A stretch of 60,041 bases of DNA, filler included, from Hausera hauseri (taxonomy: Eukaryota): assembly GCA_046269625.1 (NCBI GenBank). It is 10 parts of 10 records of this genome, joined end to end, with 100 filler letters (N's around TTAATTAATTAA, not from the genome) between each part and the next. Parts side by side here need not be neighbours in the genome. Positions count along the whole stretch, not along the records: positions 50,400 to 55,488 come from JBJURY010340158.1; 9 more parts are not named here. The stretch is one strand, 5' to 3'. Position numbers and translations under genes: made by a program. This document shows positions 778-59,719 of this stretch, piece after piece. The notes below the pieces were generated by a model. The model was given only the letters and a program-made list of their open reading frames with translations, was not told the origin of the DNA and ran no database searches. The first letter of the stretch is position 1. Each line of letters starts with the position of its first letter.

Positions 778-789
778 TCCTTGCGTTCC

Positions 790-3065: not shown

Positions 3066-3203
3066 TTCGTTCTTCCGGTTGTTGTTATCCGTTGTCCTCA
3101 AGTTGCGTATGACGTCTTTGAGTCTATTGCTATTTCTCTTGTCTGCTTCCTTGTTAAACAATTTTGGTTAATTTACTTCACACGGGAGTTTTCTAGACGC
3201 TTT

Positions 3204-5709: not shown

Positions 5710-7903
5710 TTATTGTAAAACGTATTTGTCCATCTTACGTTCTAAGTTACGGGCTGCTCTCTTCAACTTGGGATTAGCTTCTAAGTTGGATAGCATCGTT
5801 TGTACTTCAGCGACTTTTACGTTGACATTCTCTTCGTCTTTGCTCCATCCTTCTGAGAATTCTACTCCACTTTTGATCCATGACTCTAATTCGTGATTCC
5901 ATTTTATCAACGTATCCCGTGGCACCTCTTCCGGTTGTTTCATTTCAATTGCTTCATCGTATTTCCCTTCGCTCCACAATTTTAAGCTCTTGTATAATTT
6001 CTCCGCAAACTGTTGTTCCTTACCGGATATATCTGTTTGTCTACTAATCTGTTTAAGTCTTTCTAAATTGTGTCTGAGTATCTCTGGATTATAACATCTG
6101 ATTCTCATTTTCTTCAATTCATCGGCGTTCTTCCATGAACGTCGGACTTTCCATTTCCTCGCATCTGGATCATTATCATCTGTTTCTTCCTCACCAGTGG
6201 GAAGCGGGCAAATTTCATTTATCTCGTCATTAATATTTATCGTCTCTGGCGTTTCTAATATTTCTGGAATTCCTACAGGCGTAATAGAGATTTCTGAGGA
6301 CGAATCATCTCTTGGGATAGCAGTATGAAATTCTCCTTTTTCTTTTATGTCTCTTCTAATAGGAGATCGTGAGCGGGTCTTAGATTTTCTTTTAGGCGAT
6401 GGGCTTCTACCTCTGTTCTTCGTTATTTTGAGAACTAAGGGCCCAATAAATTCACTTTCAACTTCATCCGTCGTTTCTTCTGGGTTAGGCTTTGCGGCTT
6501 CTATTTGCGCATCTAGATCTATATTTTGTGATGTAGATGGTTTCTCGGACTGTCCTATTCCTTGCGGAGCAGACTTCTTGCGTGCCATATTCGTATTATT
6601 TGGTGCCAACTCCCATTCTTCTTCCGTTTGTGGCTCTCGTAATCCATGATAGACTTCCATTAGTCGTAATTTTTTTTCATATTCTTTCCTAGCGTTCATA
6701 ACTTGAAGATTAGTAGTTTCACTTAAATTTCGTACAGATCTTCGTAAATCTTGCATCTCAATGATTAGGCTTATATTACCTCGTTTACCATAAATGGCTT
6801 CTAAGTTATTTTTAATCATGCTTGTCTTGTTTGGTTCAGTAAATATGACACTTCTAGGATTTGGGCAAGACCTTGCAATGTGTCCTTCTTTTCCACATGT
6901 AAAGCAGATTAAGTTCCCATTTCGACCAATCTTTTGTCTGCCATCTTCATTTACAGGCGATTTTGATCTATTTGTATTCTTATTCTGTCTTTGTGATGTT
7001 TGTCTACTGTCCCCGTCATATCGATTATCGTTACTTCGATTATCAGTGTATTTAGTGTTATATCAATAACTACTTTGGTTTCTATCTGAGTTGTAGCTCG
7101 ATTTATTATACGAGTTATATGTATTTCGGTTACTACTAAAATTCCTATTGTTTCGCTTATTTCTACCTTTGTTATTTCTATTATCGAAACTTCGATTTCG
7201 ATTATTATTATTAAATCGTCTGCTATCTTGATTATCATTTCTATTTCGATTATTGCGGTCATTATTTCTTTCATATTTGTCACGTTGCTGGGCGTATCTC
7301 TCTAACGCCATTTCTAAGTCTTGAGCTAATTGCAGCGTCCGTTCAAAATTATCGGGTCTAGCCAGAATTAATTGTTTAACTAAATCTCTTGACCATATGC
7401 CGTTTATTAACTGAGTCGTCATCATGACGTCTAAATCTGGTGGCGTTGCTTTTTCCGCGGCTTCACGCTCCGCTTCTGTTTTAGCTTTTGCTACGTTAGC
7501 TATTCTTAAGGTACTCACATAACTATTAGCGAGTTTCTTTAATGCAAATGCAAACTGGGTAACCGATTCACCTTTCTGTTGCACTCTATTCTGAAATGCC
7601 ATAAGTTTCTGTTGTGGCGTTACTGTAGGCAATAACTTACGATTTAATGCTCCTACCAGGGAGGACCAAGATTTCTTTTCATCATTAGTAAGCTCACTAT
7701 AAGCATCGGCAGCTAAATTCTTAAGATATAGTGATAAGCGTTTTATTGTTACTTCAGGAGTAAGACTAGCACCCTCCGCGTGCAACTTATAAGTCCTTAA
7801 AAAGTCGTTTAGTCCGTCCGGATCACAGTCGTATGCCGGAAGGTTCAGAGTCAAATGTAAAAATGTCGAGCTTTTGTGATACGGCTGGATTCTCCGCTGC
7901 CAT
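5710..7903 (-). pseudogene. gag: Gag (capsid, N/R-rich linker, CCHC knuckle, RS-rich C-terminal extension)
   Basis: LSLYLKNLAADAY..W..L, RVQQKGESVTQFAFALKKLA (retrotransposon gag); CFTCGKEGHIARSC at ~6865-6906, in frame with both 7063..7854 and 5710..6819 across one TGA at 7063-7065. Confidence 0.9.
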
Positions 7904-8201
7904 ATCTATTTTATTCGTAGGAGGTTTATCCTTAAGTCGAGGAAGTTTAAACTTGCCGTTTGATTCTAAATTGATTTTAGTCTCAGAATTTGTTCTGTAT
8001 ATTACTCTGCGTGTCTCACGTATAGGAAATTGATTTCTACCGTTTATTTGGTTCTCAATGTTCGTCTTAATTTATCTATTTATTTTAGTCTCTGATAACT
8101 TATATCCCACAATTTATTTTTCTTTCGATTAATCGGTGTATTGGCGCTGATGGCCGATATGTCGTTATTTAATTCTGAATAGTACTAGCTAGGCACAGAC
8201 T

Positions 8202-8219
8202 GTCCTGATACGGTCGCCA
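8202..8219 (-). promoter_or_regulatory. Primer-binding site, probably tRNA-Arg(TCG)
   Basis: Minus strand TGGCGACCGTATCAGGAC, 2 nt after LTR end ...TAACA; near-complementary to the 3' end of metazoan tRNA-Arg(TCG) (...TCCTGTCACGGTCG-CCA, from memory). Confidence 0.8.
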
Positions 8220-8221
8220 AA

Positions 8222-8747
8222 TGTTATATATTAGGGTGGCCCTTAACTCACGCCCCTTATATATAACGTATTTACTCTTGAAATTAGATATTTCTGTGCA
8301 AATTCGGTCTAACGTTATCGTTAAACGAATGTGCCTAGTATGTCGATATTACGTGAATGCAAGTGTGGTGAATACAAATCCTGTGCGTAGTTTGAATACT
8401 TCTATTTACCTATATAGTTTACCGTGAATTTTAGACTTAGTGTAACTCAAATCAGCCTTAACGGCCGATGAAAAACTATAGTGGGATTTTAAAAGAAAAT
8501 AAATAATATACCGATATAATGAACACCAAGTTAAGAATCACAACGATTTCGATAATGTCTATAAGACTGACAGTAGGTAGAAAGNNNNNNNNNNGAAGTT
8601 ATTCAAATTCTGTTAATACAAATCGACGCTACAGTCGAAGAAAAACTAAGTAACTTCACTTAAAAATCTACACCTTATATACATTTTCGTTGACGTAGGT
8701 GTTATTTACCCACTTAATTGTTTCCGATTTCCGGCAGTTGTTTAACA
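8222..8747 (-). repeat. 5' LTR of copy A (distal end tentative, spans the 10-N gap)
   Basis: TGTTA at 8222 abuts the PBS; candidate inverted terminus TAACA at 8743-8747. Confidence 0.6.
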
Positions 8748-12980: not shown

Positions 12981-13080
12981 NNNNNNNNNNNNNNNNNNNN
13001 NNNNNNNNNNNNNNNNNNNNNNNNTTAATTAATTAANNNNNNNNNNNNNNNNNNNNNNNNNNNNNNNNNNNNNNNNNNNN
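12981..13080. other. Artificial contig linker N44-TTAATTAATTAA-N44 (all-frame stop); same linker at 18713-18812, 23473-23572, 27896-27995, 33106-33205, 37415-37514, 44803-44902, 50300-50399, 55489-55588
   Basis: Nine identical 100-bp N/TTAATTAATTAA/N blocks; content changes abruptly across each. A separate 10-N scaffold gap lies at 8585-8594. Confidence 0.98.
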
Positions 13081-13449
13081 AAAAGTGATCCGCTGTACTC
13101 TACTCGTTTCGCTTCTGTCATTGGCAAATTCAAAGACGAAAGCAAGGGCAGCGTTCAATATCAAGAAGCTATTTTCTTACGTCCAAAATCATATGCCCTC
13201 AAAACCCAATCCAAACCAGTGCTCAAGTGCAAAGGAATCAACCTCAAGCAAACAGACTTACAATTCAGTAACTACTTGCAGGCGTATGAAACCGGTTGCG
13301 GCACTATGGTAGATCAAGAGCGAATTGGCAGTAAGAACCACCAGCTCATGACCATCACCTCAAAAAAGAAAGCACTGGATCCCTTCGATGACAAACGACA
13401 CTGGGTTGATAAAAACCATAGTGTCGCATATGGACATTATTCTATTTGA
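13081..13449 (+). mobile_element. pPolB: Polinton/Maverick protein-primed DNA polymerase B, C-terminus (copy 1)
   Basis: GKFKDE, FLRPKSYAL, KCKGI, KKALDPFDDKR, SVAYGHY motifs in one frame. Confidence 0.9.
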
Positions 13450-21700: not shown

Positions 21701-21789
21701 ATGTACATAAGAAAAAAAATCACAGTAGTAGTATTATAGACAATAACCAGCCGTAAATCAGGCTGAGGGTCAGGCTAAGTATATACACT

Positions 21790-22565
21790 TTTGAGAGCGA
21801 GTCGGGGTAAAGGACGGTGAGATTTTCTGGTAAGGTCGTGTTCGTAAGGGTATTCCCGCTGGTTTAGGGCGACTTCGTCGCGCTTGAGGCTGTTTTTGGG
21901 ACCGAGTCGGGGTATGGGAGGGCGAGCTTTTCTGTTAAAATCGCGTTTCTTAAGGGTACTGCCGCTGGTTTAGGGCGACTTCGTCGCGCTTGGGTATGTC
22001 TTTGGGCCCGAATCGGGGTAAGGAACGGTGAGATTTTCTGTTAAAATCGCGTTTCTTAAGGGTACTGCCGCTGGTTTAGGCCGACTTCGTCGAGCTTCTA
22101 GATGTTTTTGGGAGCGAGTCGTGGGAAGGAACGGTGAGCTTTTCTGTTAAAGTCGCGTTTCTTATGGTTGCAGGTGTGGTTTAAGTCGTGTTTAGTGACA
22201 AGCAAGGGGAGATATTTTCTGCTAAGGTCGTTTTCCTTTGAGTGCTGCCGGTAGTTTTGGTTGACTTAATCGCGTTTGTGGGTGTTTTTGGGAGCGAGTC
22301 GGGGTAAGGGCCGGTGAGATTTTCTTGTAAAGTCGCGTTTGTGGGTGTTTTTGCGAGTGAATTGGGGTAAGGACCGGGGTATTTTTCTGTTAAAGTCGCT
22401 GTTCTTATGGTTGCGGGCGTGGTTTAGGACAAATTTCTCATGTTTAGTGACAAGTAAGGGGCGATATTTTTTGCTAAGGTCGTGTTTCTTAGAGTGCTGA
22501 CGCGAGTTTAGGTCGACTTCTTCGCACTTGTGGATGTTTTTGGGATTGAGTCGGGGTAAGGGACA
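21790..22565. repeat. Tandem satellite, ~105-106-bp G/T-rich unit, degenerating distally
   Basis: GAGTCGGGGTA-like anchor at 21799, 21904, 22010, 22116, 22296, 22548; GCTGGTTTAGG.CGACTTCGTCG recurs. Confidence 0.9.
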
Positions 22566-22639
22566 GGCTGGCTTATGAAAAAATAGATCATGCGTGGATC
22601 ACATACAGGTATCAGTACTACACGTAACAGTAGTACTGT

Positions 22640-23465: not shown

Positions 23466-23572
23466 AACAGCGNNNNNNNNNNNNNNNNNNNNNNNNNNNN
23501 NNNNNNNNNNNNNNNNTTAATTAATTAANNNNNNNNNNNNNNNNNNNNNNNNNNNNNNNNNNNNNNNNNNNN

Positions 23573-24166
23573 TCATACATTGGTCAAGCTGTTCTCGATC
23601 TTTCAAAGTTGAGAATGTATGAGCTTAACTACATTGAGTTGGAAGCATATAGGCAACAGTTCAATTGTGAACTTAATATTGTTGCTGGTGACACTGACAG
23701 TTTCTTTCTTGAGTGTCGTGGAATTGATCTCCGGTCTCAACTTTTACCTGCCATGATAACAAATGAACAGTTGGACACTTCTAACTACGACGCTACAGAC
23801 CCTCTTTATTCTGCTCGTTTTGCTTCAGTAATAGGAAAATTTAAAGATGAAAGCAAGGGCAGTGTTAAATATGAAGAAGCAATCTTCCTTCGGCCAAAAT
23901 CATACGCCCTCAAAACACAAACGAAACCAGTGTTGAAATGTAAAGGTATCAATTTGAAGCAAACCGATTTGCACTTTGACAACTACGTGCAAGCATACGA
24001 AAATGGTTGTGGGACAATTGTTGACCAAGAACGGATAGGAACAAAGAATCACCAACTGATGACAATGTGTACAAAGAAGAAAGCCCTGGATCCATTCGAT
24101 GATAAGCGACACTGGATAACAAAGAACAAAAGTGTCGCCTACGGACATTATTGTACACATGAGTAA
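23573..24166 (+). mobile_element. pPolB: Polinton pPolB C-terminus (copy 2), open frame
   Basis: IGQAVLDLSKLRMYE, AGDTDSFF (motif C), LDTSNY, GKFKDE, RPKSY, KCKG, DDKR, AYGHY. Confidence 0.92.
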
Positions 24167-37867: not shown

Positions 37868-40600
37868 CAGTCGCGCAGCCAGGAGTTTCCTGAGAGGGGG
37901 AATGGTGATACTATGTAAATGCCGTATTCTTCAAAAATGTGTACATTTTCTTAGAAAAACTTTTTTGTGAGAACCAGTGGGACTGTAGGTGGGTAACTGA
38001 GTGTCTTTAAGCATTTAGACTCCTTGACCAGATGCTACTGTTATGATGTGCTACTGATAATCCCCTTATTCCCCTATTTAGTTTGTTTTCTTTGCTCAAG
38101 AAAACTGTTTCCACCAGGCCCTGTAAGTGTGGATGGTATCTCCCGGCGCTAACTTATAGTTATCTTTCTCTCTACAAACCCAAGGCCTCTTGGAGACTGT
38201 GTTCAAAATATTTAAGAGAAGACAAGTGCACATGAAATCAACAATTCTCGTCAGTTTAAATCCCCATTTCACGTGAAGCCCATAATTCACAGATGTTGTA
38301 CAAAATGGCAATCGACGAGGAGCACGGTCAATGAAGATTTATAGAACTTGCTCTGGATCACATAGGATGCGCCGATGAACTTGGAGAAGTGCTAACCCAT
38401 TCAACCGCGTCTCAGATAAGGTGCTTCTCAATTCGGTTTGGAGGTGACGAAGTGCAGAAAAAGATCTTTCTGCTGAACAGCCGGTGACTGGGAGAGTAAC
38501 AATGAGCTGCAACAAAATGTTAACATTTGTGAGAGCCTCTGAGCACTGACCGAGGACATTCAATGCAGTTTTCCGTCTCAAATCGAAATCTGCAGTAAGC
38601 CACCGTCCTGGCCAAGCAAACAGTTCGCCTTGGAGGTCTGTGAAAGATCTCAAATCATCTTCGAATTGTTTCGAAGCATGCATGATCAATAAGATTCTTT
38701 CCTCAGAAATAATCATAATGGGAAGAATGTTTTGCAATTTCACTGTAAGATGCTTTTTCCCGAAAACTCTCTCGGAGATTGGTGATCGAATTTTCTGTAA
38801 ACTGCAGAAAGACGTTAAAGAGATAATAATCTTGCGGAGATTTAACATGAATGTCGGGACGATGGGTCATGCGTTTACTGATCCGTGGAACTGAAGGCTA
38901 AATGGTCATCGCAGCTGCAGTGTCGGTAGTTGGTTTGTAGATCTCGGAGTCGTAGTCCACATGCAGTGTTTTCAGACCAGACAATGTGGTTGATTGTAGC
39001 CGAAAGGATTCATACAGGTCAATGTTGGGTGCTTGCAATTGGACTGACACAAGGAGTGTTACAGAGAACATCGCGAAGCACATGGTCAAGGCATGGATAA
39101 AGGCGAATGTTGGGATGATATTTAGGAAATGAAGTGCAGCTGAAGCTGTGTGTGGGTTATTTGCATTCCCTTGAATGTCTTCCAGGGCGTTTAGCGTTGC
39201 TGGGAGAAGGTCACTGAACATGAAAATGACATCATACGCTCAATCCATCTTGTTTCGGGTACGGCTCTTAACTTTTTAGCTTTCGTAGACTCACCAAAGA
39301 CTTTTGCAATGCTTCTTTGTATCTGAAACATGCGGCTAGATGATTTATGGAAAAACAAAGGAACACTGCTTATCACTCCAATACAATCACGTACACCTGA
39401 AGCATTGCACGCTTTGGCTATAGATAAATTGAGTTTATGACTGGCTCAGTGTGAATAATGTGCTAGGGGTTGCAATTTCAGGATCTCTGACTGTGCACCT
39501 CGATATCGTCCATTCATATTGGCTCCACCATCATAGCCTTGTCAACGATGGTACTTCAAGCTTAAACACATGTTTTTGCAGATAGGTTTTAAGTGCTGCT
39601 GCAATCCCTGCGCATCTTGCGTCGGAGGATATATCAAGGAAACTTGTAAAATCCTCACAGATGGTCATGCCATCCCGTCGATGTCTAAATAACGAATACA
39701 TACAGATATTTGGGACTTACTTGCGACATCTGTAGTTTCGTCAGCAATTAAGGCGTAAAAGCAAACTTTTTGGATTGCACCACAAGTTGTAAATGAATGA
39801 GTGCACCACAGCTGTGGATAATTTGATTTTGAATGCCAAACTTGCCATTTGGACGTTGGCTTGACTTTCTTGTAAATGCCGAGTAAGTTCTTCGTCTCCA
39901 GCGTCCACCCTGAATCGCAGTAATGCGCGGAAATATCCATCATTTTGCTGACAGTCGTTCTTATCCGTTGTAATAGTTCCAAAATCACGATGTCCTCTGA
40001 GAGTAGGTTATTACATCTTCAGAAGATAACTGTTTTTATTATGGACTTTAGACGATTTCTATTTTCTTTCACAGCGGATGCATACTGATTGTCCAACTAG
40101 AAATGGATATCATCTACATTATTCTTCTTTTTTGCAAGAAGGGCGTCAGCCTGAAAAACGGAGAATGAATAGTACTGCGTACTTTCGTGAGTATCAAAGA
40201 CTTCCAGAGCATTCTTGTATTTTTTCAAGGGCTTAGTAACCAAACTCCCCAGATTTTGCGCTTCTGGTTACCAGTATATCGACAAAATAGTACCAATGGT
40301 CTACAGAATGCACCCTCACACTCTGGTAATGAACTCTAGAACAGAAATGGATAACGATACAAGTACTCGTGTTTGAATCTATGTTGTGATCCAGGGCGCC
40401 AACATGCTGTCAGGAGTTTATACAGTATCTCTTCATCAGTTGCTGGTGATGTGACGTAACGACCAATGTCTAGTGAATCACACTGGGCTGGTTGAGAAGG
40501 CTGACAACTTGAACTGTCGTAGACTGTGGTCAAATGAGGAGCGACCCGTGAAGTCACTGCAGGAGAATCATGAGGCTCAGATGATATTTCTAATGACATT
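37868..40600 (-). mobile_element. hAT DNA transposon (ZMYM1/P52rIPK-like transposase), decayed
   Basis: YALIADETTD, QGYDGGANMNG, H..ASHKLNL, ETRWIER, LPVTGCSAERSFSALR..LRSTLSETRLNGLALL; candidate terminus CAGTCGCGCAGCCAGG..GGGGG at 37868. Confidence 0.9.
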
Positions 40601-41569: not shown

Positions 41570-44440
41570 ATGGAGAAATATTATGACATTCAAATGGACG
41601 GATCTCAGTTTTATGTCTGCCCAAAATGCGAACTCATTTCCTAAGTTCAAAAAACATCATCAGCACTGCCTATGATATTTCACCAAATCCAAAAAATCAA
41701 TCCTGAAAGATCACACGGATATGATTAGAATGACCAAACAATTTGTAACAAATCATCAAATACCAATAACATCAGCCCATCAACAATAACAGCAACCAGT
41801 TAAGCAATTAATCAAAGGAAATACAAATAAGAAGACTGCCAAAAAACTGAAACTTGATGATCATTCGATGATTAAAAAGACTGCTCCTGTACAAAAAATA
41901 AGATTCGATATACCATCTGTTATCGACAGTAATTACATTAATCTTTGTTTTTATGTTGCGCCCGCCCAACTCATTTCTACTAGACCATCTGAAGAGATTC
42001 TGTCTATTTTACATATGTACACTTCTCGATTTTCATCTTACATGATTCAGTACGGTCTGGAAATTTTGTTTGCGAATACTGAAAGAGACTATAAGGAAGC
42101 TTACATTTCTCATAGGGCAGTCCCTTATAAACAGTCTTATCCCAAATCTGTAGCCGATAGTTTGTGAGAGCAAACTAGGAATTTTGCTGAAATGAATAGT
42201 GGATGGAAGATAGTTAAGATTTTGAAATACTGCTTTCATATAGTAAAAACAAGCCCACTACCTTATTTCTCTGGTAGATCAAATCTGCCAACACCTGACG
42301 CTTTTAATTTTGCAAAGGCAGTTATCAACGTACAAAATGAGGATAGCTTATGCTTCTTGTACTCCATACTTGTTGTGACAAAGTATTATTCTACTGATAG
42401 TCATAGGTATCGAGTCAGTAATTACATTCCATACTTAGGTGATTTGAAATATTCTTTGCATGATATGCCTATGAAAATTTGCAACATAAGTAAATTAGAG
42501 AGACAGAATCCACAACTTCCCATTAATGCCTTTTTGTATCATGAGGATGATGATGTTGACTTCGATGTAGATATAGTAAAAAATCCATTCGCTGATATTT
42601 TGTATATAAGCAAAATCCGAATGGTTCTGTAGTTAACTTGATTTTGAAAAATGATGATAATTTCCACTACGTTACGGTTCCTAATCTTAATCGACTATTG
42701 AACGCACGGTCTAACAGCATGAGAATTCAATGTAAGCATTGGTGTGAGAAATGTTTACATGACTTTAGACTTTAGACTGCTTACGCTAAGCATTTACCAA
42801 TGTGTATGTCTTCTTCCAAGTGAAGGGATTTGTACAAAATGCCCGAAAAGAAGTTTTGTAAATTTACGGACTGATCAAAATCCATAAGTCCACCTTTCGT
42901 TTTATATGCCGACTTTGAATCTGTTGCTTGTCTCGACGGTACGGTTAAACATATTCATTTGCCTGCTGCAGCCTATCTCTTGTTAGTTTTCTCCACAGGT
43001 ATTGAATATAAGCAATTTATAGGTGAAAATTCCATAGTTGAGTTCTTGGCTTGTTTAGAAGAATTGTGAAAACTGTAGTTTTCCCTTGGTACGAAAATTC
43101 AAAAAAACCGATGATCCCGTTAATATCTGCTGAATGGTATCGTTTTAAAAATGCCACAACATGTTACCTTTGTCACAAAAACGGATCGGACTTTGTTCTG
43201 TGATCACTACCATGTTACGGGTAAATTCTTAGGCCATGCTGCCAACAAATGCAACTTAGCACGACAGATCAGATACAATTTACCAGTTATGTTTCACATT
43301 TTGCGTGGATATGATCTTCATCAAATCTTAAAACACACATTAAGCAAATTTAATACTTGGAAATTAAATGCTATTCCACAGATTACTGAAAGATTTTTGA
43401 CTATATATGCAATGATAAGATGTTCGTGTAAAAAGTCTGTTACTATTAGATTTCTGGATACTCTTCAGGTTTTACCGGCTCCACTAAAGAATTCAGCCTC
43501 TAATTTATATAGTTACCCATTTACAAAATCGGCTTTTCCTTCGAATATCATTAAGGGAAATGGTATTTTTTAATACACTGCAACCAAATCTTTCAGTGAC
43601 TTGCAGTCGATTTCTGATTTACCATCTAAATGGAACGGTATTAGCGATAGTGATTATGAGGAGGCTCAACCTACCTGCTTGAGATATAGGTGTAACAGCA
43701 ATTAGGTTATATGTTGGTATACATGAAACTTTTTGTATACTTGTTAGGAGATGTTTTTGAACGGTTTAGAAAGGAGGTTAAGTTACAGAATGGTTTAGAG
43801 GCAATTCCCGATTATTTTGGGCAACAGCACTGAAAACAAGTAAAACAAAACCGGCGTACATTAGTGAGGCTGTGCTTTATCTTTCCCAGTTACGATTGTA
43901 TGAAATAAATTACGTCGAGTTGGAGACTTATAAGCAACAGTTTAATTGTGAACTTAATATTATTGCCGGTGACGTGGACAGGTTTTCATCGAATGCCATA
44001 AAGTTAACTTGCGAACGCAGCTCTTGCCGGCAATGATAGCTAATAAACTGTTGGACACTTCGAACTATGATAAAGTGATCCTCTATACTTAACTCGTTTC
44101 GCTTCTGTAATAGGGAGATTTAAGGATTAGAGTAAGGGCTGTGTCGAGCATTATGAGGGGATTTTCCTAAGGCTGAAACCATATGCACTAAAAACCCAAA
44201 GCAAACCAGTCCCCAAATGCAAAGGGATCAACCTCAAACATACAGACTTACAGTTCAGCAACTATCTACAATGCATACGAAACCGGTTGTAGCACCATTG
44301 TGGATCAGGAGCGAATTGGAACCAAAAACACCATATAGTGACAATCCAATCAAGAAAAAAGGCGTTGGACTCGTTCGACGACAAACGCCAGTGGATCCAG
44401 AAAAACAAGTGTCGCAAACGGACATTATTCTACTTGATTG
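41570..44440 (+). pseudogene. pPolB: Polinton pPolB (copy 3), near full length but decayed, with central deletion
   Basis: SGW, KAVINVQNED..CFLYSIL, PFVLYADFES, DHYHVTGKFLGHAANKCNL (endonuclease-VII-like), FH..GYDLH, RFLDT, GDV(D), FDDKR; polymerase motifs A/B missing near 43800. Confidence 0.9.
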
Positions 44441-47675: not shown

Positions 47676-50399
47676 TGATGCTCGGATGCTCACCATTTCG
47701 TATGAGTGTGAACCGGTAAAAATCATCTACTGACGCAAAGGCAGAAATAAGTGTCTCAATAGGATTTATTCAAATCGTTTCAGCTAGCAGTTTACAGTAA
47801 GCAAACAAAAATAAAAAATGCGATAACATTCATACTGATATATATATATATACAGCAGCATCTGCATTCTGAACGTGACCTTAGAAGTAGACTGTTACTT
47901 TAAAGAACATTATACCAGTTTCCTGAACTTCTTACAATTATATGTTTATAGAGTTAGGTTTACACCATTACAAGCAGACGGATATACTTTAAACCGTTTT
48001 CGAAAATACATACCTAATTCATTTGGGTTACATTATTTTATCAAAGTATTGTCAACATGTGCATAAGGAAAAGACGCTCTGTATCAGAAATAATTCAGCT
48101 CTGGGAAAATATATGGACTATATAGCTTCTAGTACGTGAATAATGTTCTCGGTTGTCATGAAATACGTCTAGGAACAGCATACAATTGAAATGTGTCTCA
48201 ATTATAAATGTTATGTAATGCAGTACGATAACGTATTCGAATGATTCGCAGTATTGAACTTATATACATTTTATTATTTAAGTTCGTATATAGAAGCAAA
48301 GTTTAGTTCACAATCATCAGCGTCCCAAACAACGAAGCCTTTCAAAATAAATTTCTGCACATATTAAAAAAATGATTTCTGATATGTCCCATTTCATTCT
48401 AGATGCCATTACATTCTGCTTCACGAACTCACATCGTATCATTCGATGCCTTTGCACATTCTGTCTACGTTCACGAATAAAGTCCGTTTCCTTTCGAAAT
48501 ACCTTCTGGAAGTGGATATGTTCTTTTCAAGTACCTCTACACTGAAACGTTGCTAATACCGCATCTCCAAGTACTTCATCGAAAGTGATTGGTGGAAACT
48601 ACGTACGTTCGGGATAATTCTCCTAAAATTTCCGAAGGAACTTCGGATAAAAGCGATTGTCCCGAGTTCTGACGTCACGAAAAACGATTGTCTGGACCCT
48701 TCAGTCCTGAATTGGAAAAGGCAATCTGATCGCTTTCATACAGGAAGCGATCGTCTTTAGCTCATGTTGTTTACGTAAACAAAGATGGCGCGTGGAACGT
48801 GGCTTTTCTCACGTTGCCCTGGGTGGTTTCTTCGGCATTCTCCTATGTTTCTACGGGTGTCAAAGTGCTGTCTTTTCTATGTAATCGACGGGGAGTTACA
48901 AGCGGATCAGAAGAATCAAGCGTAGAAGTCTCATTTATATATAATAAACCTGAATTTTGAAGATGGCGCACACCGTATTCCAAGGCAATCTAACGAAAGA
49001 CAGTCGTCTTCCAGACCAACAATTGTCGAAATTTGAAAGAATTCTCCATCTGATTGGAAAGAAATCTGTCAGTGGCATAACGGACGTGATCTGCGACATA
49101 GCGGAGGTAAGAAACGACTTAAATAATGTCTTTTTTTACAGTGCGACTTACATGAAATATATTTTAATGAATTAGTCTCAATACATATATTCAGAAAACG
49201 TATTGCAAAATGTTATGCATGTTCACCAGTATTCATATGGCATTTTCGTGTAGCTAGCTAATTGAACGTGAAGTTTAAATATTACTTACTGTTATGGCCA
49301 TGTTACGTCTAATATACCATGCATTTAATTTTTTCTTTATCGAACTTTGTTGAAACGGAAATATATCAGTTTCGGGGCGTTTTAGTTTGGGGAAATACAT
49401 GCAATTTGTAATACTTCAGGAAAGAGGGCCGAGAAACGAAGCCGAAACACCTATCATAAATATCATAATATTATATTTTAAAAAAACAAACCCTAAAACA
49501 TTTGTATATAGAATAGTTGCACATTATAGTTCTACCAGGTAACTATTTACGCATATAGTTAAATTGTGATTTTTGGAAAAAAAATGTGCTACCAAAGAAA
49601 AAAACAGAAACCATCAAATCTTGTTTTATTCTCAAATTTCAACGATTCACAGAAGTGCATTTCTTGTCACAAATAACGCTCTAACTGAAATGTATTCCAG
49701 GAGTGATTTTATCAAATTTTCGTCTGCCAACGATAAAAACTCTGGACATATTTATCTTTCTAATTTGACGACAATTTCACAATTCGTGTTCCTTTTATGG
49801 CGTTTTAATATATCTTTCCATCGGTTTTATATAAACAGTGCTGTATAATTTCCAATTTGATGACTAGCGGGTATATATTAATCAATCTCGTACTTGTGTG
49901 TTTGATGATTTCTCAGAAAGGAAAATCATTTACGTTTGAAACCGAGTACTGGCATCAAAGTTTGAAGTCTTCATTTATTTTTCATTCCACGAGATCGATT
50001 TTAAACCCATAGCGGGGTAGTGGTATATAATATATACAACTTAATATTGAAATTTTTATTTCAGTATCTATTGAAGCATTTTCTTCAAAAATTCTAATTA
50101 AAATACAGTTTGTCCTTACCTTTGCGTATAAAAAATAACAGCACCAACATTTGATCACTCTAAAAGTTATAAGAAAAGCATTCCGATATTGCGGCAAGGA
50201 AAGGACAGTGCAGCGAGGAAAGGGTCGCTGAAATGTCCCGCAGATAAAGTGTTAATAAACAGTCGTGTGTCCCATGAATAATAAGAAGATTTTGCGGCGN
50301 NNNNNNNNNNNNNNNNNNNNNNNNNNNNNNNNNNNNNNNNNNNTTAATTAATTAANNNNNNNNNNNNNNNNNNNNNNNNNNNNNNNNNNNNNNNNNNNN

Positions 50400-51325
50400 A
50401 TTTTCGTCTTTGATCCATTTATTTCTTTTGATGATAGAAAAATACCTTGATAATTAGTTCTCAATACTTCTTCACTACACTTATTTACTACTCCAGCGAC
50501 TTTAAATCGCATCATTACTTCTGGGTTTTCCGAATATACAATTGTAGCTAATTCCGTCATCTTAACTTCCTTTGTTTCTTCTTCATATGTCGCTGTCACT
50601 TTCTCCGCCGTTTTCCCACTGTCTTGTTAAATTATCCTTCTTTCAATAGCATCAACTGGCATTTAATTGCAGATATTTCCCACGTCATTTTTGACTCACC
50701 AGTATCGCATTAGACATTATCATATTCACACTCACTCACAGTCGTCATTAATTTCGTTTGTGAGTCGAATAATCCTTCGTATTCCTTCAATTGGATTTGA
50801 TAATCCTCTATAGCTACCGATCTAGGTGCAATGGTACCTCCAAAGTCGTAGTCCACTCCTTTGCGGTCCCTTCCGTTGTTTTGTCTATTCTTCCCGCTCT
50901 GAAGATTCTGGTGTATTTTATTCTATTTCGGATTGCGGGTATATGCGCATTTTGAATAGTTATTATGCCAATCTTAAAAACATCCTGACATTCTGCGCGC
51001 GATATTATTATCGGTTCAAACGATGTTGTGGGTTCGATGATGGCCGAATTTCCCGAATAATAGGCACAATTAAAAAGAAAAAAATGCCCTCTTTACGTAA
51101 CATTCCCTAACTTTCACTTTTATAAATTCAGATTCTTGATAAACCAAGTATGTATGGCAAATTGTTGTTTTCAGTTGTTCTGGGTCGGCTTCTGAACATT
51201 CCCTAAATCCAATAAAGAGTACTTTTGTCCTTCGCTAGGCTTTGAACAATCGTAGATCACTATACCTACTGCTCTTGGCATCAATAGTGACATTATTAAG
51301 AGGATCGGTAGGATTTCCATTATTG
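50400..51325 (-). pseudogene. env: Class III env glycoprotein, N-terminal half
   Basis: MEILPILLIMSLLMPRAVG signal, then IVIYDCSKPSEGQKYSLLDLG, ECYVKR..FNC, IIEPTT; homologous to 2406-3060. Confidence 0.85.
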
Positions 51326-51429
51326 ACATACCCATTATGCCTTGTCTAGGAGTGTTCGACTGAGTCACAGTTGGCATATCAATTAATCTTTCTCTTTCTC
51401 CGGACCTTGTTAGGCTGGTCATCAGACTG

Positions 51430-51820
51430 GTCAACCATCCACCTCTACACTGAACCCAATTTCCTAACGTATCTGTCAAGATCTTTACGGCTGTTTTTAT
51501 ATTTCTGTCAATTTCCTCTAAGTTCTGAGTTTGATGATTGATTACTATTATTTTGTATAAAAGATAGGATATAGCAGTTTGCGCTTTCTCTCTTGTAATT
51601 CCCGTTGCAAACAACTTTCCAAAATATCTAATTCGTGTAATTCGTTTACTCGTTCCTCATCGAGATTCTCATAGAATTGCCTACTAATCCGTAACATATT
51701 ATTACGAAAGATTTGGAATAGCTCATCGGGGATTATTACTTGCATGTCAAAGGAGACGAATGATGTATGTAATTTAGCTAGTAAGGTTCTTAATAAAGTA
51801 TTTATGTCCACAGATTCAGG
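51430..51820 (-). pseudogene. Bcl-2-family-like domain (one frameshift near 51615)
   Basis: BH3-like MLRISRQF (51674-51697), BH1-like LFATGITREKAQTAISY (from 51614), BH2-like LGNWVQCRGGW (51435-51467), in canonical order. Confidence 0.62.
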
Positions 51821-51904
51821 TGTAACGTTTGTTCCTGCTAATAATAAACGCCTTGCTATTTCTTCATTTCTGTCTTTCTTGTTATGAATATCACTTATCT
51901 TCGT

Positions 51905-52270
51905 TCCTTTTGGTCTACCTCTTCTTTTAGCTTCTGTTTGGACCGTAACGTCTTGCGTATCATTTACGGGAGGTCCTTCTACTTCCTGCGGGTCCATTTC
52001 CCTTAGGATATTATCCATCGTTGCCTGTGCTCTCGCCTCTGGATGTATCTCGGTTATAACTATTGGATTATAGTTTTCGCTTTTGCATCCAATTCTTAGT
52101 AATCTATCATAGCTGTAAAGTGTCCTTCCGTAATAATTTAATCCATAAGAGCTCCTTTGGTAGAATGGTTCCAATTCTTCTATCTTTTCTCATAAAGCTT
52201 GTATATCGTCTATTTCATTCATTCGGATAACTCTCATATCTTGATTTCCTTCTCTTACTGTTATCCTGAT
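51905..52270 (-). pseudogene. Ubiquitin-like domain (52055-52270) and AT-hook KRRGRPKG (51905-51928)
   Basis: IRITVREGNQDMRVIRMNEIDDIQAL*EKIEELEPFYQRSSYGLNYYGRTLYSYDRLLRIG..PIVI has ubiquitin beta-grasp spacing. Confidence 0.65.
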
Positions 52271-52999
52271 AGCTTAATTTCTTCCTTTCTCATCTTCGGC
52301 AGCTCTGGCAAATACTGTCCTGTCTATTTCTCTTATAGGACAGGGCTAGTAATACCAATTGAGGTAAAATTTCGTTCATCCTTTCTACTGTTACTTTATT
52401 AGCAATTACCTTCAGTATCGTAGTAGCAGTTTCGTCTACATTGTTTATATTATTGGGGTCGACAGTCATTACTGCTTGAATAACATCGTCTTCCTCGTCT
52501 AGATCTACACCTGGATTCTTTATTAATTGTTCTAATATAGCTTCATCAAATCTTGGTGTGGTTTGAGTTTCGTCTTGATCAAATGAGGGTGTACTGACGT
52601 TACTTTTCTTTCGTCCTCTTTTCTTTTCCTTTCCTACCTCTTCCCTCTGTTGATGTTTCTCTTAATCCAACATCTATGTCAATTATTTTCTTATTACCTT
52701 TCTTTCTTCCTTGACGGGATACTTTTTTCTCTGGCTAATCACTTACCATATAAATACTGTTTTCTTTTAGTCTTTTTTGTTGTGTTGTTTAGTATTTCAG
52801 TTCCATTTCTAACTGTTTCTTCATGCGTTGGGATAGTGTATCGTTTATATAATTAACACTTTCTTTCTTCTTGTCTTTTTTCTAAGTTTCGTGTTCACTT
52901 ACGCTATCCTCTGTACCGTATTCTTTATAGGACGATTCATCTGACGTGGCTGATATGTAATCTTTCTTCTGTTGTTTATTCTTATTACTTGATTTCGAG

Positions 53000-53880
53000 G
53001 GATCTCCTCTACGTGATCTACATGATTTTGCTATATGTCCTTATTTATTACAGTTAAAACGTTTCAATCTTCCTTCGGAGTCTATGTTGAGTAACGCTCT
53101 TCCATCCTTTTTGGATTTCTTTTTATAACTTGTCTTTTCTACGTCTTACTCAGCTTCTGTGGCCGACGTTTGTGACGGGCTTCTATTCTTTTAGTATCGT
53201 TGATACTTTTGTGTACCATTGTTTCTTCTTCCATAGTAGTTAATATTGCTACTTTTTGGACTTATTCCACATATATAGTTCCGCATCTTGTTCGGCTTTT
53301 CGTGCCTTCCTTATTGCTTCTTGAAATGTAGGAAGGTCTGCTTGAGAGATTATTGTCCTCAACCTTGCTTCCAATTCATACTGGAATTGGACTAACAAGG
53401 CATCAATTCTTATTGTAACGTCGGGGTATGCTGTAGTCGCTAGCTTTTCCAATGCACGGACAAAGTCGTGAACTGTTTCGTCTTTACATTGCCTCGTTCT
53501 TATAAACTCTTCAATTCTCCCCTTTCCAAGGGATCTATTAAAAACTTCTAAGGCAGTTTTTCTTTAACTCTTTTCCAGTCCTACTTATCGTCGTCTGGCA
53601 TTTGAAAACATATCATGAGAGCCGTTCCTTTTAGTTGGAGGGGTAATCTCTGTACTCTTTGTTTATTATTTCATCTAAAACTTCTGATTTGTAATTCGTA
53701 TTCCATCATAAAGTCGTGTATATCTTCTTTCCCAGAGAATTTCTTCATTGGTAAGATGAAATCAGCCTTCGACTGAATCACCTGTACTACATTATGGTTT
53801 GCCATTGGTTCTTCTTCACTTAGGTTTCGTAAATATTCTAATCCGTAAGGCTTGTTTTCCTCTGGTTGATATATCGTTCC
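53000..53880 (-). pseudogene. gag: Gag of copy B
   Basis: KFSGKEDIHDF, LPLQLKGTA, RQCKDETVHDFVRALEKLA..AYP, (C)FNCNK*GHIAKSC at ~53018-53060. Confidence 0.85.
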
Positions 53881-53932
53881 TTTTCTTGTCGTAATCTTGA
53901 TAGTTCTTATAATCTAAAAGTCTATCAAGAGT

Positions 53933-53952
53933 GATTCCGGATCGCGGCACCA
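53933..53952 (-). promoter_or_regulatory. Primer-binding site, probably tRNA-His
   Basis: Minus strand TGGTGCCGCGATCCGGAATC, 3 nt after ...GAACA; resembles the complement of the tRNA-His 3' end (..GAATCCGAGTCACGGCA-CCA, from memory). Confidence 0.7.
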
Positions 53953-53955
53953 ATT

Positions 53956-54538
53956 TGTTCAATCCTCACTAATTACGTCGGGAGAGACTTAAATTATTGG
54001 TTAATTAATGGGAAGAACAAATTTACTTTACTTATTGTTTATTTGATATGCAATGAAACTAAGGCATCTTACCTATCTGTATGATCAGTGATATGTAGGG
54101 AATACTCGTTAATTAACCTTTACTTTCCTACTGGTTAATATATTATTATTATTTAAGTTTATACGGGCCGTCGTCAGGTAGTTTGACCTGGTCGATGAAT
54201 GAGCCAATTTAGTGAGACGTTTACTCAATTAATATGTTTACTTTTGACAAAGATTAAAAATAAAACCTCTGTTAAATCAAGAATAAAGGTATATTTATTA
54301 AGATATCACAAACGTACAATAAAATTAACAATCAACCGTGTACATATAAAATGAATACTAAAGTGAGGTCATAATGGCGATAGCACAAAATGAATAAACC
54401 AAAAATCACTACTGGTCGTGCAAAATATCACTGTTTATATACTCATGAATTCAAAGATTATGTGCATAAATTAGGAAACATCACATCAATAACCGTTATA
54501 GGTGTACATAAATATGTGTATAAAACATAACTATAACA
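53956..54538 (-). repeat. LTR of copy B (distal end tentative)
   Basis: TGTT at 53956 abuts the PBS; candidate AACA end at 54535-54538. Confidence 0.55.
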
Positions 54539-54852
54539 TGAAACATTAGTATGAATGGGAAGAAAAATCTGTGACATTTACGTAAATGAAAAATCATTAT
54601 TTTCTGTTCAGTTAATCACTAAACTATGTTTTTCGGTGTGCGATGGAATTTCAATGTTTTCGATGATATTTGCGATGACATTTCATTTTACAGAATCGAC
54701 TGCGGTTCAAAGAAATTGACCCGAATTTATCATTGATCTATAGGTAGGGGCATATGGATGAATTTGCCCGTTGTCCTTGATTTGTAACGAATTGATTCGG
54801 GTTTGTAAACTTCATAATCCAATATTATAGTTTCGTTTAATTCTACTTTTCT

Positions 54853-55385
54853 CTATCGGGCACATTGTGATGTGGTTGGTGCTGTTTGCACCCGATTTTG
54901 AGTTATGAGTTCATCTGTCCATTTCACTTGTTTGTATATAGATTGGTAACAATGTACTGAGGCAGTGCTGCGAACGGAAAAAGCCTTTGTATCATAAAAT
55001 TTTCGTGTTAGTTCTTTGTATGTACCAGTCGACAACTGATACTTGCGGATCACCTCCTCGTGATATAGAATATCACGAACTCCGGCTAACCGCATGATTG
55101 GACATTTTAAATGGTTTACGACCATTTTGATCACGTCGGCTCCGATCAGCACTTTATCTATAAGTATTTCTTTGACCTTTTGATAGAAATCTAGTAGGTC
55201 CATCTGCTTGTTGATATTTGTTTCTGTGAGGCCCGTTATGTGCGTATCAAAGTTTTTGATACGCTGTCTAGGTGTTATTATTCCGTACCGCAAATTATCT
55301 CTATGCGAGGTCATAATCGATGCTTCAATAAGTTGGAGCTAGTTCCACTGGTCATAGGCCAAACTTACGCCGGCTATGACCATGT
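54853..55385 (-). pseudogene. Second DEDDh exonuclease-like ORF lacking catalytic residues
   Basis: IEASI..IITPRQRIKNFDTHITGLT...KVKEILIDKVLIG..LAGVRDI..SIYKQVKW; parallels 33974-34663 (IAGLREI, EIYIMLKW). Confidence 0.65.
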
Positions 55386-55588
55386 CTTTATCTGTTATTT
55401 TGTCGATTCTTCTAAAGGATATATTCTTGTATTTAATGTAATCGGGCTTTGGGAGTTTAAAACAATTTCCTTCTGAGAGGCTGGGGTGNNNNNNNNNNNN
55501 NNNNNNNNNNNNNNNNNNNNNNNNNNNNNNNNTTAATTAATTAANNNNNNNNNNNNNNNNNNNNNNNNNNNNNNNNNNNNNNNNNNNN

Positions 55589-55995: not shown

Positions 55996-56725
55996 TGAGC
56001 TTTTATGTGACATTACCGAGCAACGCGTCCATGTCGACTTTTCCAGATAACGAAGCCGATCATTTTTTCGTTAAACTTCCACAAACGATAGATTTGAATT
56101 CACAATACGAAGTAGGACTGGCCGAAATTGAATTCCCAAACAGTTAATTTAATGTTATAGAAGACGATAAATTACCTTCCACATAAGAACAGTAACAAGC
56201 CAGCATTTAAAATTACGCTGAGTCCCGGTCACTACAATTCTCACGAGGCTCTTTTTGACAAATTAAACAGACTGTTTCTATTACCGGTAACGACCCGGCA
56301 CCATTGAACCTCCATTACCGAAAAGCCCAGAAAACTATTTTACTCGAACGTTTTGAGTCTGGTGCAGAAATTATTATTAGCGAAAATTTGAAAAATATTC
56401 TGGGTTTGCCAAAAACCCACATAACGGCCAATGACCCCCTTCTACTGGGTAAAGTGCAGATGAACCTGAACAGTGATATACGAAATGTTTATGTGTACTG
56501 CGACTTAGTGGCCACCAGACTGGTGGGAGATATTATGGTCCCTTTGTTGCATACATTGGACAGGAATTTGACATCTGTATTTCGAAGTTACGATAAGCCT
56601 CACTACTTACCTTTAAACAGGTTTTCTTTCGATACGGTAGAAGTGCTTTTAACCAACGATCAAGGTAAACGTATTTCATGACGAGTGGGACGTCGGTGCT
56701 GACACTACATTTTCGAACCAAGTGA
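55995..56725 (+). pseudogene. Polinton minor capsid (penton) protein
   Basis: FYVTLPSNAS..FPDN..F.VKLP..L..YEVGL.EI; YVYCDLV..VGD..PLL; YLPL..F..VEV.L; LTLHFR end; internal stops. Confidence 0.85.
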
Positions 56726-56747
56726 AATTTCGATTTACAATAAAAGA

Positions 56748-57176
56748 ATGGTTCGTCACACCCCTTTACACCGAAATGCCAAAATGTACGAAGATTTTTA
56801 ATGCACTTAAGCCGGACACGGAATGCCCGTTTTTGTCAGAGGAAGAAGTCAAAGAGGAAGAGGGATAGGTAGTTTCTTTAGCGGTTTAGGTCGTATGGTC
56901 CTCCCATGGCTAAAGACTGGAGGGAAAGCTTTAATCCGCGAAGGCGTTGGTATGGGCTTGCAAGTCGCCCAGGATGCTTTAGCGGGTAGAAATGTAGGAG
57001 AATCCTTTAGAGACAGAGCCAAACATGCCGGACAGAGACTGCTGCAAGGAGCGGTGAATCATATGACCACCAACCAATCGGGTAGTGGCCGTAAACGACA
57101 AGCCCCACCCGGCGAAACGTTTTGGATAAAATCGCGTGTGAACCACAGAAGTGCTCATAATTCAAAGAAGATGTAA
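56748..57176 (+). pseudogene. Polinton PZ-like core/membrane-lytic protein
   Basis: (Q)AGHG, QRGRGIGSFFSGLGRMVLP, QSGSG: repeated xxGxG adenain-type cleavage sites and an amphipathic helix; two stops near the 5' end. Confidence 0.75.
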
Positions 57177-57202
57177 AAGCGTTCAGACATATTTGGATAG
57201 CC

Positions 57203-58438
57203 ATGTCACTCATTCATCCCAGTTCTTGCGAATGTCTTCATTCTGGACTGGATTTATTCAGCGTACCCCCGACACAAACAGCTGTAGAAGAAGGACAATT
57301 TGTAGAGATACATCCACAAGTATCACTGGCCCCTGGGGCACCTATAGAATTTGTAATATTCGGATCAGGGGAGGACTATCTAGATTTGTTCAATACATTT
57401 TTTCACGTGAGAGCCAAAGTAACTCTAGCGAACGGCAACAACCTACCCCACAACGCCGACGTGGCCCCCATAAATAATTATTTGCCTTCTTTATTTTCTC
57501 AAGTGGACACTTTGATTACACCCAGTGAAAACACATACGCTATGAAATCTTATTTGGAAGTGTGTCTTAATTTTGATCACGAAGCTAAAAGCAGTCATTT
57601 AACAGCCTTGTTGTATTATGCAGACACACCTGGCTTTTCCGAGGTCAGTGCCGGCGATCTTAATCTTGGACTGAAAAAGTGCAGAGAATTAGCAAAAGGC
57701 AGCCGAGAACTGGATATGATGGGAAAACTCCATTCCGACATTTTCACTCAAGACCGTTACATCATAAATGGAGTAGATGTCAAAATCAAGTTAACACCGT
57801 CCAAGGATTCGTTCAACCTAATGGCCAAGGAACCAGGATATAAGTCCATTATAAGTGAAGTCTTGGTCGTTCATAAAGCCAAACTCAATCCCACCATCGT
57901 CTTAGCACACGAAAAAGCGCTGAATGGTGCCAATGAAAAATATCCAATTAAAAGGGTTAACATGAAGACACTCGCGATTCCGAGAGGCATGCTGTTGCAT
58001 ACACAAGACAATCTTTTTCTCAGCCAATCACCAACGCGCATTGTGATTGGTCTTCTCGGCGCCACTGCTTTTAACGGAGTATACAACAAACCTTTCAATT
58101 TCGAAAACAACAATTTTACATATTTAAATATTACTGCCCATGGCAGAATCATCATAGGAAAACCAATAGTCACCGATTTCGAAAACGATCATTACGTCAG
58201 AGCATTTTTCAACACGAATCTGGCTTTAGGATTCGTCGGTAAAGACGTCGGTAATAATGTAGAATACAAAAGTTTCAAGTACGGATACTGTTTATTCGCG
58301 TTTGACCTGACCCCTAGTTTAATTGACTGTGACCAGTTTGAAATGGCCAAAGCGGGACCAATTTCTTTAGAGTTTAAATTTTCCTCAGCCCTGACGGAAC
58401 CGCTGCAGGTAGTCGTGTATGCAGACTACGTTTCGTAA
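57203..58438 (+). CDS. Polinton double-jelly-roll major capsid protein (small deletions, C-terminus probably clipped)
   Basis: EC..S.LDLFSVPPTQTAVE.G, PIEF.I.G.GEDYLDL, PINN..SLFSQVD, GKLHSDIF.QD..IINGV, GYCLFAFDLTP. Confidence 0.9.
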   Translation: MSLIHPSSCECLHSGLDLFSVPPTQTAVEEGQFVEIHPQVSLAPGAPIEFVIFGSGEDYLDLFNTFFHVRAKVTLANGNNLPHNADVAPINNYLPSLFSQVDTLITPSENTYAMKSYLEVCLNFDHEAKSSHLTALLYYADTPGFSEVSAGDLNLGLKKCRELAKGSRELDMMGKLHSDIFTQDRYIINGVDVKIKLTPSKDSFNLMAKEPGYKSIISEVLVVHKAKLNPTIVLAHEKALNGANEKYPIKRVNMKTLAIPRGMLLHTQDNLFLSQSPTRIVIGLLGATAFNGVYNKPFNFENNNFTYLNITAHGRIIIGKPIVTDFENDHYVRAFFNTNLALGFVGKDVGNNVEYKSFKYGYCLFAFDLTPSLIDCDQFEMAKAGPISLEFKFSSALTEPLQVVVYADYVS

Positions 58439-58440
58439 AA

Positions 58441-58887
58441 ATGAACACCCAACAAATTCAAACAATTTTACAATCTGACATTTTCGCCCGGCGCATTACT
58501 CTGATAGTGGTGGCACGTGACATGTTACCTACATTCATCAGACCAAACGAACCGGCGGCTTTTGTCGTAAACACTGATCCCAGCGATAAACCCAGTTCAC
58601 ATTGGGTAAGCCTTTATTACGACAGGCTCGGTACATTTCATTATTTCAACTCGTTTGGTTTGCCTCCCTTACACTCAGACATTTTGAATTTTATTAAACG
58701 AAATTCTAATATGCCTTACGTATACAACGCCAAGATTTTACAGGATGTGTTGAGTAATACTTGTGGGCTGTATGCCATTTATTTCATACTTATTAAAACC
58801 AGAGGCGGACCTATGAATCCACACAAGCTGGATCAACACCTTTATCTTTGTATGTCCAGTCAACGTCAAATAAACATTTACATATAA
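58441..58887 (+). CDS. Adenain-like cysteine protease
   Basis: VVNTDPSDKPSSHWV (His), YFNSFG, LQ..SNTCGLY (Gln/Cys). Confidence 0.88.
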   Translation: MNTQQIQTILQSDIFARRITLIVVARDMLPTFIRPNEPAAFVVNTDPSDKPSSHWVSLYYDRLGTFHYFNSFGLPPLHSDILNFIKRNSNMPYVYNAKILQDVLSNTCGLYAIYFILIKTRGGPMNPHKLDQHLYLCMSSQRQINIYI

Positions 58888-59442
58888 AGAAGAAGGAGAG
58901 GAGTGCGAAGAAACCAAAACTTGAACAATAATCAAAATTGTGAATTTATTGTCCTTGCTTGTTTCAAAATAAAAAAATAATGTAAATAAAAGCTTTTCAT
59001 TTCTTGTATTTTTAGTGTGTGTGTTTGTGTTTGTATGTATAAAATTATTCAACACAGGTATCTACCACAAAAAGACAGCCAACTGAAGAAATTCCGGCAC
59101 AGTTCTACCTTGTAATCGGCCTTGTTTCTTTCTTAAATTGACAACAAGGGAAAATATCTTTGATGTCCTGTCTTTGAATTTCCAACACGGAACATTAGTG
59201 ACGACCTTTAAATTGATAACATAAATTTACACTACGGAAAAATATCCGGGCACAGTTTTACACAATATAATTTCTAAACACTTAATATTCAAAAAAATAT
59301 GTCTTCATCTTACAAAATTAAAATCGCCTACAGTGTTATTGCAACTTGTCTAAAAATACCCTTTCCTAAAATACCACAGCCTTTTGTCTGATGCAACTGC
59401 ACGGAGGGATCCGTATCAAACAATCACACGAAAGGCCGCTAG

Positions 59443-59660
59443 CGCGGCTATTGTGTGGGAAAAAATTCAATTAATGCCACCAGTCCCTCGGCTAGTGTAT
59501 GGGGAGAAATCAATTACCGTCACGGATCCCGCGGCTATTGTCTGGGGAAATGTCAAAGCACGACTGACCGCTTGGGTGGCTACAGTGCAGAGAAAATTCA
59601 GTTCACAGCGTTGGTCGCGCGGCTATTGTCTGGGGGAATCATCAAAGCGTGATGCGATAA
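59443..59660 (+). repeat. Five ~44-bp-period repeats, core CGCGGCTATTGTCTGGGGAAA
   Basis: Unit starts at 59443, 59487, 59530, 59575, 59618. Confidence 0.8.
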
Positions 59661-59719
59661 GCGGGTCACGTACACCTGTGTTTAATTAAAATACCGGCGA
59701 TAACCAAGTGGGGTTGTGT

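Follow-up and report, generated by a model that had tools for sequence, protein, structure and literature searches.

A Bcl-2-like segment within an LTR retrotransposon has a published precedent in planarians. The Burro-2, -3, and -4 elements are described as containing a BCL2-like motif (Arkhipova and Yushenova, 2019; PMC6431247, with reference to Grohme et al., 2018); in Burro, according to the text of that paper, this motif is preceded by a ubiquitin/SUMO-like one and followed by an in-frame Env, after which comes the protease. BIR and ubiquitin-related motifs accompany the BCL2-like one in Burro, and the authors of the paper propose that the element interferes with apoptosis. The original prediction had implied that a Bcl-2-like domain in an LTR retrotransposon is new; given the BCL2-like motif already published ahead of an in-frame Env in planarian Burro, that priority belongs to the earlier work (PMC6431247). 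More recently, nine flatworm elements with a gB-type Env and GAG-ENV-POL order were reported (Chary and Hayashi, 2026; PMC13524379), in a paper whose main text and seven supplements do not contain the string “bcl.” We found no paper testing the Bcl-2-like domain (figures and subscription papers fell outside this search, and the supplements of Grohme et al. may say more).

The locus described here lies in a window of 60,041 nucleotides (the whole stretch of DNA that was analysed) from the Hausera hauseri assembly GCA_046269625.1. Gaps of constant make-up, with 12 bases between two runs of 44 N, occur at 10 places, e.g., 12,981-13,080 and 50,300-50,399; the window thus consists of short contigs joined by a linker, and neighbors need not adjoin in the genome. 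Elsewhere it holds a long, apparently intron-poor and broken N-terminal region of PI4-kinase alpha (PF19274; 28,300-32,400, minus strand), possibly a captured or processed copy, a tandem array of ~106-base units (21,772-22,590), and a hAT transposase dimerisation domain (38,339-38,866, minus strand). Fragments with matches to DNA polymerase B and an adenovirus-type protease (PF03175, PF00770), together with a three-copy repeat, lie at 13,087-13,386, 23,525-24,166, 43,124-44,376, and 56,259-59,689, and these are presumably pieces of Polinton/Maverick-like elements.

The element that carries the Bcl-2-like domain, here called copy B, occupies the minus strand of a contig of 5,089 bases (50,400-55,488) flanked by gaps. 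Its probable 5′ LTR end (53,940-53,957), found by pattern scan as a CA with a TGG primer-binding-site-like sequence after it, was one of four candidates within 53,750-55,488 and was picked for its position just upstream of gag and for the drop in contig depth beyond it. A Gag capsid region follows at 53,279-53,766, broken by stops and spread over two frames, which aligns by tblastn to residues 17-182 of P0001, an unbroken natural relative described below (41-48% identity, E 7e-28). The next feature, a ubiquitin-like region at 52,052-52,285 (a weak call), is also broken; it aligns to residues 458-545 of P0001, with 15 of 39 residues identical over 52,052-52,186, and taken alone gives no Pfam match. 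A basic RGRP motif at 51,908-51,928, shared with P0001, bears what we take to be a resemblance to an AT-hook. The N-terminal half of the Bcl-2-like domain (51,620-51,810; 37-42% identical to P0001) comprises predicted helix 1, the sequence IIPDEL at the BH3 position (51,736-51,719), and helices 2-4, which include MLRISRQF; the C-terminal half (51,410-51,614), in a different frame, comprises the BH1-like LFATGITREK, helices 5-6, and the BH2-like WVQCRGGW. A hydrophobic segment identified by Kyte-Doolittle hydropathy (51,258-51,320), ending at AVG before IVIYDC, leads into a broken Env of the class III (chuvirus/herpes gB-like) fusion glycoprotein type (50,400-51,257; 36-38% identical to the P0001 Env), cut by the gap at 50,400. 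The distance from gag start to Env is 2.5 kb.

Copy B is thus a decayed, high-copy LTR element of Gag-Env type. Its alignment to P0001 is colinear over 53,766-50,402 and falls into six segments, of which five carry in-frame stops, indicating that copy B is dead; it cannot itself make a Bcl-2-like protein. The domain is divided between two ORFs (51,548-52,189 and 51,171-51,656), with the change of frame near 51,615-51,620, and since P0001 reads through the same region, the break is a lesion and not a programmed shift. The family itself is large and diversified, judging by the contigs of one public run: 9,431 of 15.5 million map on 50,420-54,300, most of them less than 95% alike and together covering all 30 bins, in a run that may be the window's own source and is not independent of it. 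Ten contigs of that run (about a quarter of the local depth) differ in length from copy B at the domain break. A third Env fragment (PF24664; 17,560-18,712, minus strand), 75% alike to the copy B Env over 188 bases, is cut by a gap, and a gypsy-type reverse transcriptase, RNase H, and integrase occur on a separate contig (24,496-26,659, minus strand).

The intact relative, P0001 (1,130 amino acids; 43% identity, E 1.7e-26), was one of 468 candidates, found with the downstream ORF as query. In a single frame it encodes Gag, a zinc knuckle, a ubiquitin-like region, the RGRP motif, the Bcl-2-like domain (residues 602-760), a stretch of hydrophobic residues, and a fusion protein of the PF24664 family, with ~810 residues from the Gag start to Env. 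Its residues 25-178 match the Drosophila-type Arc2 capsid entry 6taq (E 0.0068) and residues 793-980 match PF24664 (E 6e-19); residues 473-522 match the ubiquitin-like family PF00240 below the cut-off (E 0.031), and the same search of P0001 gives a weak match to the Bcl-2 family PF00452 (E 0.055). The sequences of P0001 and copy B both end inside Env, and the order Gag then Env is seen in both. No relative beyond P0001 was recovered among 765 and 7,828 candidates or 1.84 billion representatives (P0001 itself was the only one returned), and none of 103 pattern matches in metagenome contigs or 12 in viral contigs was confirmed as a relative. The comparisons below draw on a single intact relative, and copy B and P0001 are not independent of each other.

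Several sequence searches, each weak when taken individually, converge on the Bcl-2 family. Among 24,736 Pfam families, PF00452 is the best match of the C-terminal half of the copy B domain (E 0.0063, 17.5 bits, profile positions 40-100 of 100), and it is also the top family for the P0001 domain (E 0.003, 18.5 bits, positions 5-100 of 100); both scores lie under the family's gathering score of 31.4 bits. The N-terminal half of the copy B domain alone has no Bcl-2 match in Pfam, and TIGR00865 (bcl-2) matches one of three alignment members (E 0.017), again under the curated cut-off. When a profile built from the P0001 domain and the two window pieces was run against 177,635 PDB sequences, the two highest-ranking entries were both BOK (E 0.038 and 0.41), with a colinear alignment that extends from BH3 to BH2; PDB searches with single sequences had proteins outside the Bcl-2 family at the top, with Bak second in one of them (E 0.66). 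These values need to be read beside those of unrelated helical ORFs in the window, which score comparably (DUF5798, E 0.005; Stathmin, E 0.0024; cavin, E 0.007), and beside a match of the P0001 domain itself to SDR (E 0.019). The predicted helix pattern is compatible with a Bcl-2-type series. The AlphaFold2 models were poor (pLDDT 38.8 for the sequence alone, 46.4 with the three-row alignment); Foldseek gave no match at E ≤ 0.001 in the PDB and viral sets, which is uninformative given the low-pLDDT model, and VIA-align with the same poor model reached a best Z of 6.1, with no Bcl-2 protein among the matches listed. The ESM Atlas returned no usable match for the domain.

Conservation points the same way as the searches. 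The BH1-BH2 half is 60 residues long in both copy B and P0001 and identical at 34 of these (57%), compared with the flanking linkers at 7 of 26 and 7 of 33 residues (21-27%; 14 of 59 in total; Fisher p 0.00035), and it is better kept between the two elements than either Gag (41-48%) or Env (36-38%). Together with the published precedent, these results support the central claim of the original prediction, that a Bcl-2-like domain sits within a retrotransposon polyprotein, as far as homology goes; the score cut-off and the BH1 signature did not come out in its favor. Because of those two shortfalls we file the domain, on its sequence, as “Bcl-2-like” and not as a canonical member of the family, and we are highly confident that it is a diverged Bcl-2 homolog. 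Its ancestor was very likely a Bcl-2-family gene of a host, with BOK as the nearest solved relative of the domain.

The individual motifs can now be read more precisely. On the minus strand of copy B, MLRISRQF (51,697-51,674), LFATGI/ITREK (51,614-51,585), and WVQCRGGW (51,458-51,435) occur in the order originally proposed, ahead of the likely Env signal peptide, and the same region lies in one frame in P0001. The reading of the GGW motif as BH2-like stands: WVQCRGGW in copy B and WVKCRGGW in P0001 align to position 100 of the PF00452 profile and to BOK, and the pattern W-x4-GGW turns up a single time across the six frames of the window, and in 3 of 200 windows after local shuffling. The assignment of MLRISRQF to BH3 has to be revised, as the Pfam and PDB alignments both place BH3 at IIPDEL, with MLRISRQF three to four turns further on. 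In this register, which is taken from the Pfam match of P0001 (positions 5-100) and the alignment to BOK, IPDEL (copy B) or IPDSL (P0001) stands against GDEL in BOK, so that the Asp is kept and the Gly has become Pro. For BH1, the proposed replacement of NWGR by TREK is right in that the Trp-Gly pair is lost and overstated as a wholesale replacement, since the T and K of GITREK match GITWGK of BOK. The corresponding sequence in P0001 is GISRNK, and the conserved Gly of the NWGR signature is thus Glu in copy B and Asn in P0001; we found no literature on BOK with TWGK in BH1. The Gly and Arg of NWGR are described as important for interactions among members of the Bcl-2 family (PMC9027176), and loss of this Gly has been read as a sign of different function (PMC8998228). 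The change of the BH1 Gly to Glu or Asn and of the BH3-position Gly to Pro casts doubt on BH3 capture of the classical kind. Binding of pro-apoptotic proteins is nevertheless described for several Bcl-2 proteins of poxviruses that have no recognizable BH motifs (PMC11209288).

Downstream of the BH2-like motif of copy B comes the hydrophobic segment (51,314-51,264), followed by the Env start IYDCS (51,257-51,243). Its Kyte-Doolittle means are 2.9 over 11 residues and 2.2 over 19 (2.75 and 1.77 in P0001), and 38 residues separate it from the BH2 Trp in both copy B and P0001. An Env placed between Gag and Pol in a polyprotein needs an internal signal peptide, and the hydrophobic core is short and signal-peptide-like, with Env directly after it; it may be cut away. 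The segment is probably this signal peptide and, at the same time, a candidate anchor for the domain ahead of it. The suggestion that this segment doubles as a Bcl-2 membrane anchor fits the anatomy, in particular the 38-residue spacing. BOK, for comparison, is tail-anchored (PMC7523462) and, according to abstracts, located at the ER.

Combined, these features allow a mechanism to be proposed for active elements of this family. The hydrophobic segment would insert in the ER membrane and signal peptidase would cut before the YDC motif, freeing Env into the lumen, while the upstream part would stay on the cytosolic face of the ER via the leftover helix of the Env signal peptide, in the manner of a tail-anchored Bcl-2 protein such as BOK. 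The element's protease might separate the Bcl-2-like domain from Gag, and the domain could bind host Bcl-2-family or ER partners through its altered groove, blunting host cell-death or ER-stress signaling while fusion protein and particles are produced. We consider the chances about evenly balanced that the domain acts in active elements as an ER-tethered modulator of cell death, with both the binding and the control of death being predictions.

The particular placement of the domain could also be due to a purely structural reuse of a Bcl-2 homolog, as a membrane-bound, matrix-like spacer that would hold the Gag side at the ER beside Env during assembly and play no role in death. The missing canonical BH1 and BH3 glycines in both elements and the constant position between Gag and the Env signal peptide speak for this explanation, as does a second, distantly related Gag-Env-protease element in the window (copy A; 1-8,223, minus strand), which has an unrelated-looking helical stretch of similar size at the same place. 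It is countered by the fact that no part of the region is better kept than the BH2 GGW and the BH1 flank, and by the BIR of Burro, another death-related module, and we regard the spacer as possible and on the whole unlikely. Copy A has a primer-binding-site-like sequence at 8,223, 4.9 kb from gag start to Env, the RGRP motif at 3,564-3,584, and a weak aspartyl protease match (E 0.1) after Env. The helical stretch at 3,207-3,575 in copy A had been proposed as a diverged version of the same domain, and this we reject, as there is no measurable likeness: the local score was 32 against a shuffled mean of 33.4, 1,125 of 2,000 shuffles scored as high, and the hhalign probability was 0.3%. The lack of a detectable Bcl-2 domain in copy A indicates that such a domain is dispensable for some elements of this kind.

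A different role, as a BOK-like, BH3-independent membrane permeabiliser that helps particles to leave the ER or the cell, would suit the BOK entries being the nearest PDB matches and the ability of BOK to permeabilise membranes without BH3 ligands (PMC7523462), but the lean toward BOK amounts to a few residues and an E-value of 0.038, a domain that kills constitutively would be a heavy cost to a many-copy family, and helix 6 appears rather polar by eye, and we hold this role to be improbable. That the likeness is accidental, an element-specific helical domain happening to end in W-x4-GGW, is suggested by the sub-threshold scores, the similar E-values of unrelated helical ORFs, and the ESM Atlas result, and is equally hard to credit since Bcl-2 heads the Pfam ranking for two sequences with ~45% likeness and also leads the PDB profile search, there over ~100 colinear positions, and related elements have a published BCL2-like motif in the same place (PMC6431247).

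Our preferred reading thus remains a Bcl-2 homolog that would be anchored at the ER and modulate cell death. The layout of ubiquitin-like region, BCL2, and Env was already known; what is new here is a compact, Burro-like Gag-BCL2-Env relative, its BOK-like lean, and the corrected reading of the motifs. The Bcl-2-like module persists in a compact element that lacks the other cargo of Burro, and it is better conserved there than Gag or Env, and this speaks for a module that does work for the element. Should it turn out to be an ER-anchored, BOK-derived death modulator, the suggested link between Burro and apoptosis (PMC6431247) would become a mechanism that can be tested on a natural domain of 160 residues. 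A far broader scenario, which we offer as speculation with the chances against it, is that capture of a BOK-type gene took place in a wide lineage of flatworm Gag-Env-Pol retroelements, beyond the giant planarian Burro, and that the Env signal peptide was put to use as the tail anchor of the product, making an ER-tethered viral BOK mimic that would steer ER calcium or death signaling in host stem or germ cells. If this were true, a retrotransposon would carry an apoptosis regulator in which one helix does two jobs.

Among described systems, the closest to copy B and P0001 is Burro / GYPSM1, the planarian giant gypsy-like element, which shares with them a CCHC-knuckle Gag, ubiquitin/SUMO-like and BCL2-like motifs, and an in-frame Env akin to mononegaviral fusion glycoproteins, lying ahead of the protease in Burro (PMC6431247, text). 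P0001 has ubiquitin-like and BCL2-like matches, both weak, followed by an in-frame Env, and copy B is colinear with it. The giant ORF1 with MATH/TRAF before the ubiquitin-like motif that characterizes Burro proper is lacking: ORF1 of Burro has 4,873 residues (PMC6431247, text), as opposed to 2.5 kb in copy B and ~810 residues in P0001 from Gag start to Env, and no match to MATH, BIR, or ankyrin was found in the available part of the compact elements (MATH being specifically absent in P0001). The RGRP motif of copy B and P0001 is unmentioned in the text of PMC6431247, and the likeness to Burro described here is one of layout. With the GAG-ENV-POL errantiviruses of Platyhelminthes, which have an HSV/gB-type Env, Env type and, as far as the sequences of copy B and P0001 extend, gene order are shared (PMC13524379); judged by eye, six Smed errantivirus C1a rows in supplement 3 of that paper look similar to the Env of copy B and of P0001. 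The pol of copy B lies beyond the gap. BOK (PDB 6ckv, 5wdd) shares with the element domain colinearity over ~100 positions, G-I-T-x-x-K in BH1, W-x-x-x-RGGW in BH2, and a hydrophobic segment after BH2; the element domain differs in the replaced Trp-Gly of BH1, the Pro in place of the BH3 Gly, its polyprotein context, and an anchor that would be shared with the Env signal peptide. Like the viral Bcl-2 proteins of large DNA viruses, it is in all likelihood a Bcl-2-type domain that a mobile element has captured and whose BH motifs have eroded; those proteins, as PMC11209288 describes them, are encoded by stand-alone genes, are often mitochondrial, and have functions established by experiment, whereas the domain described here is known from its sequence.
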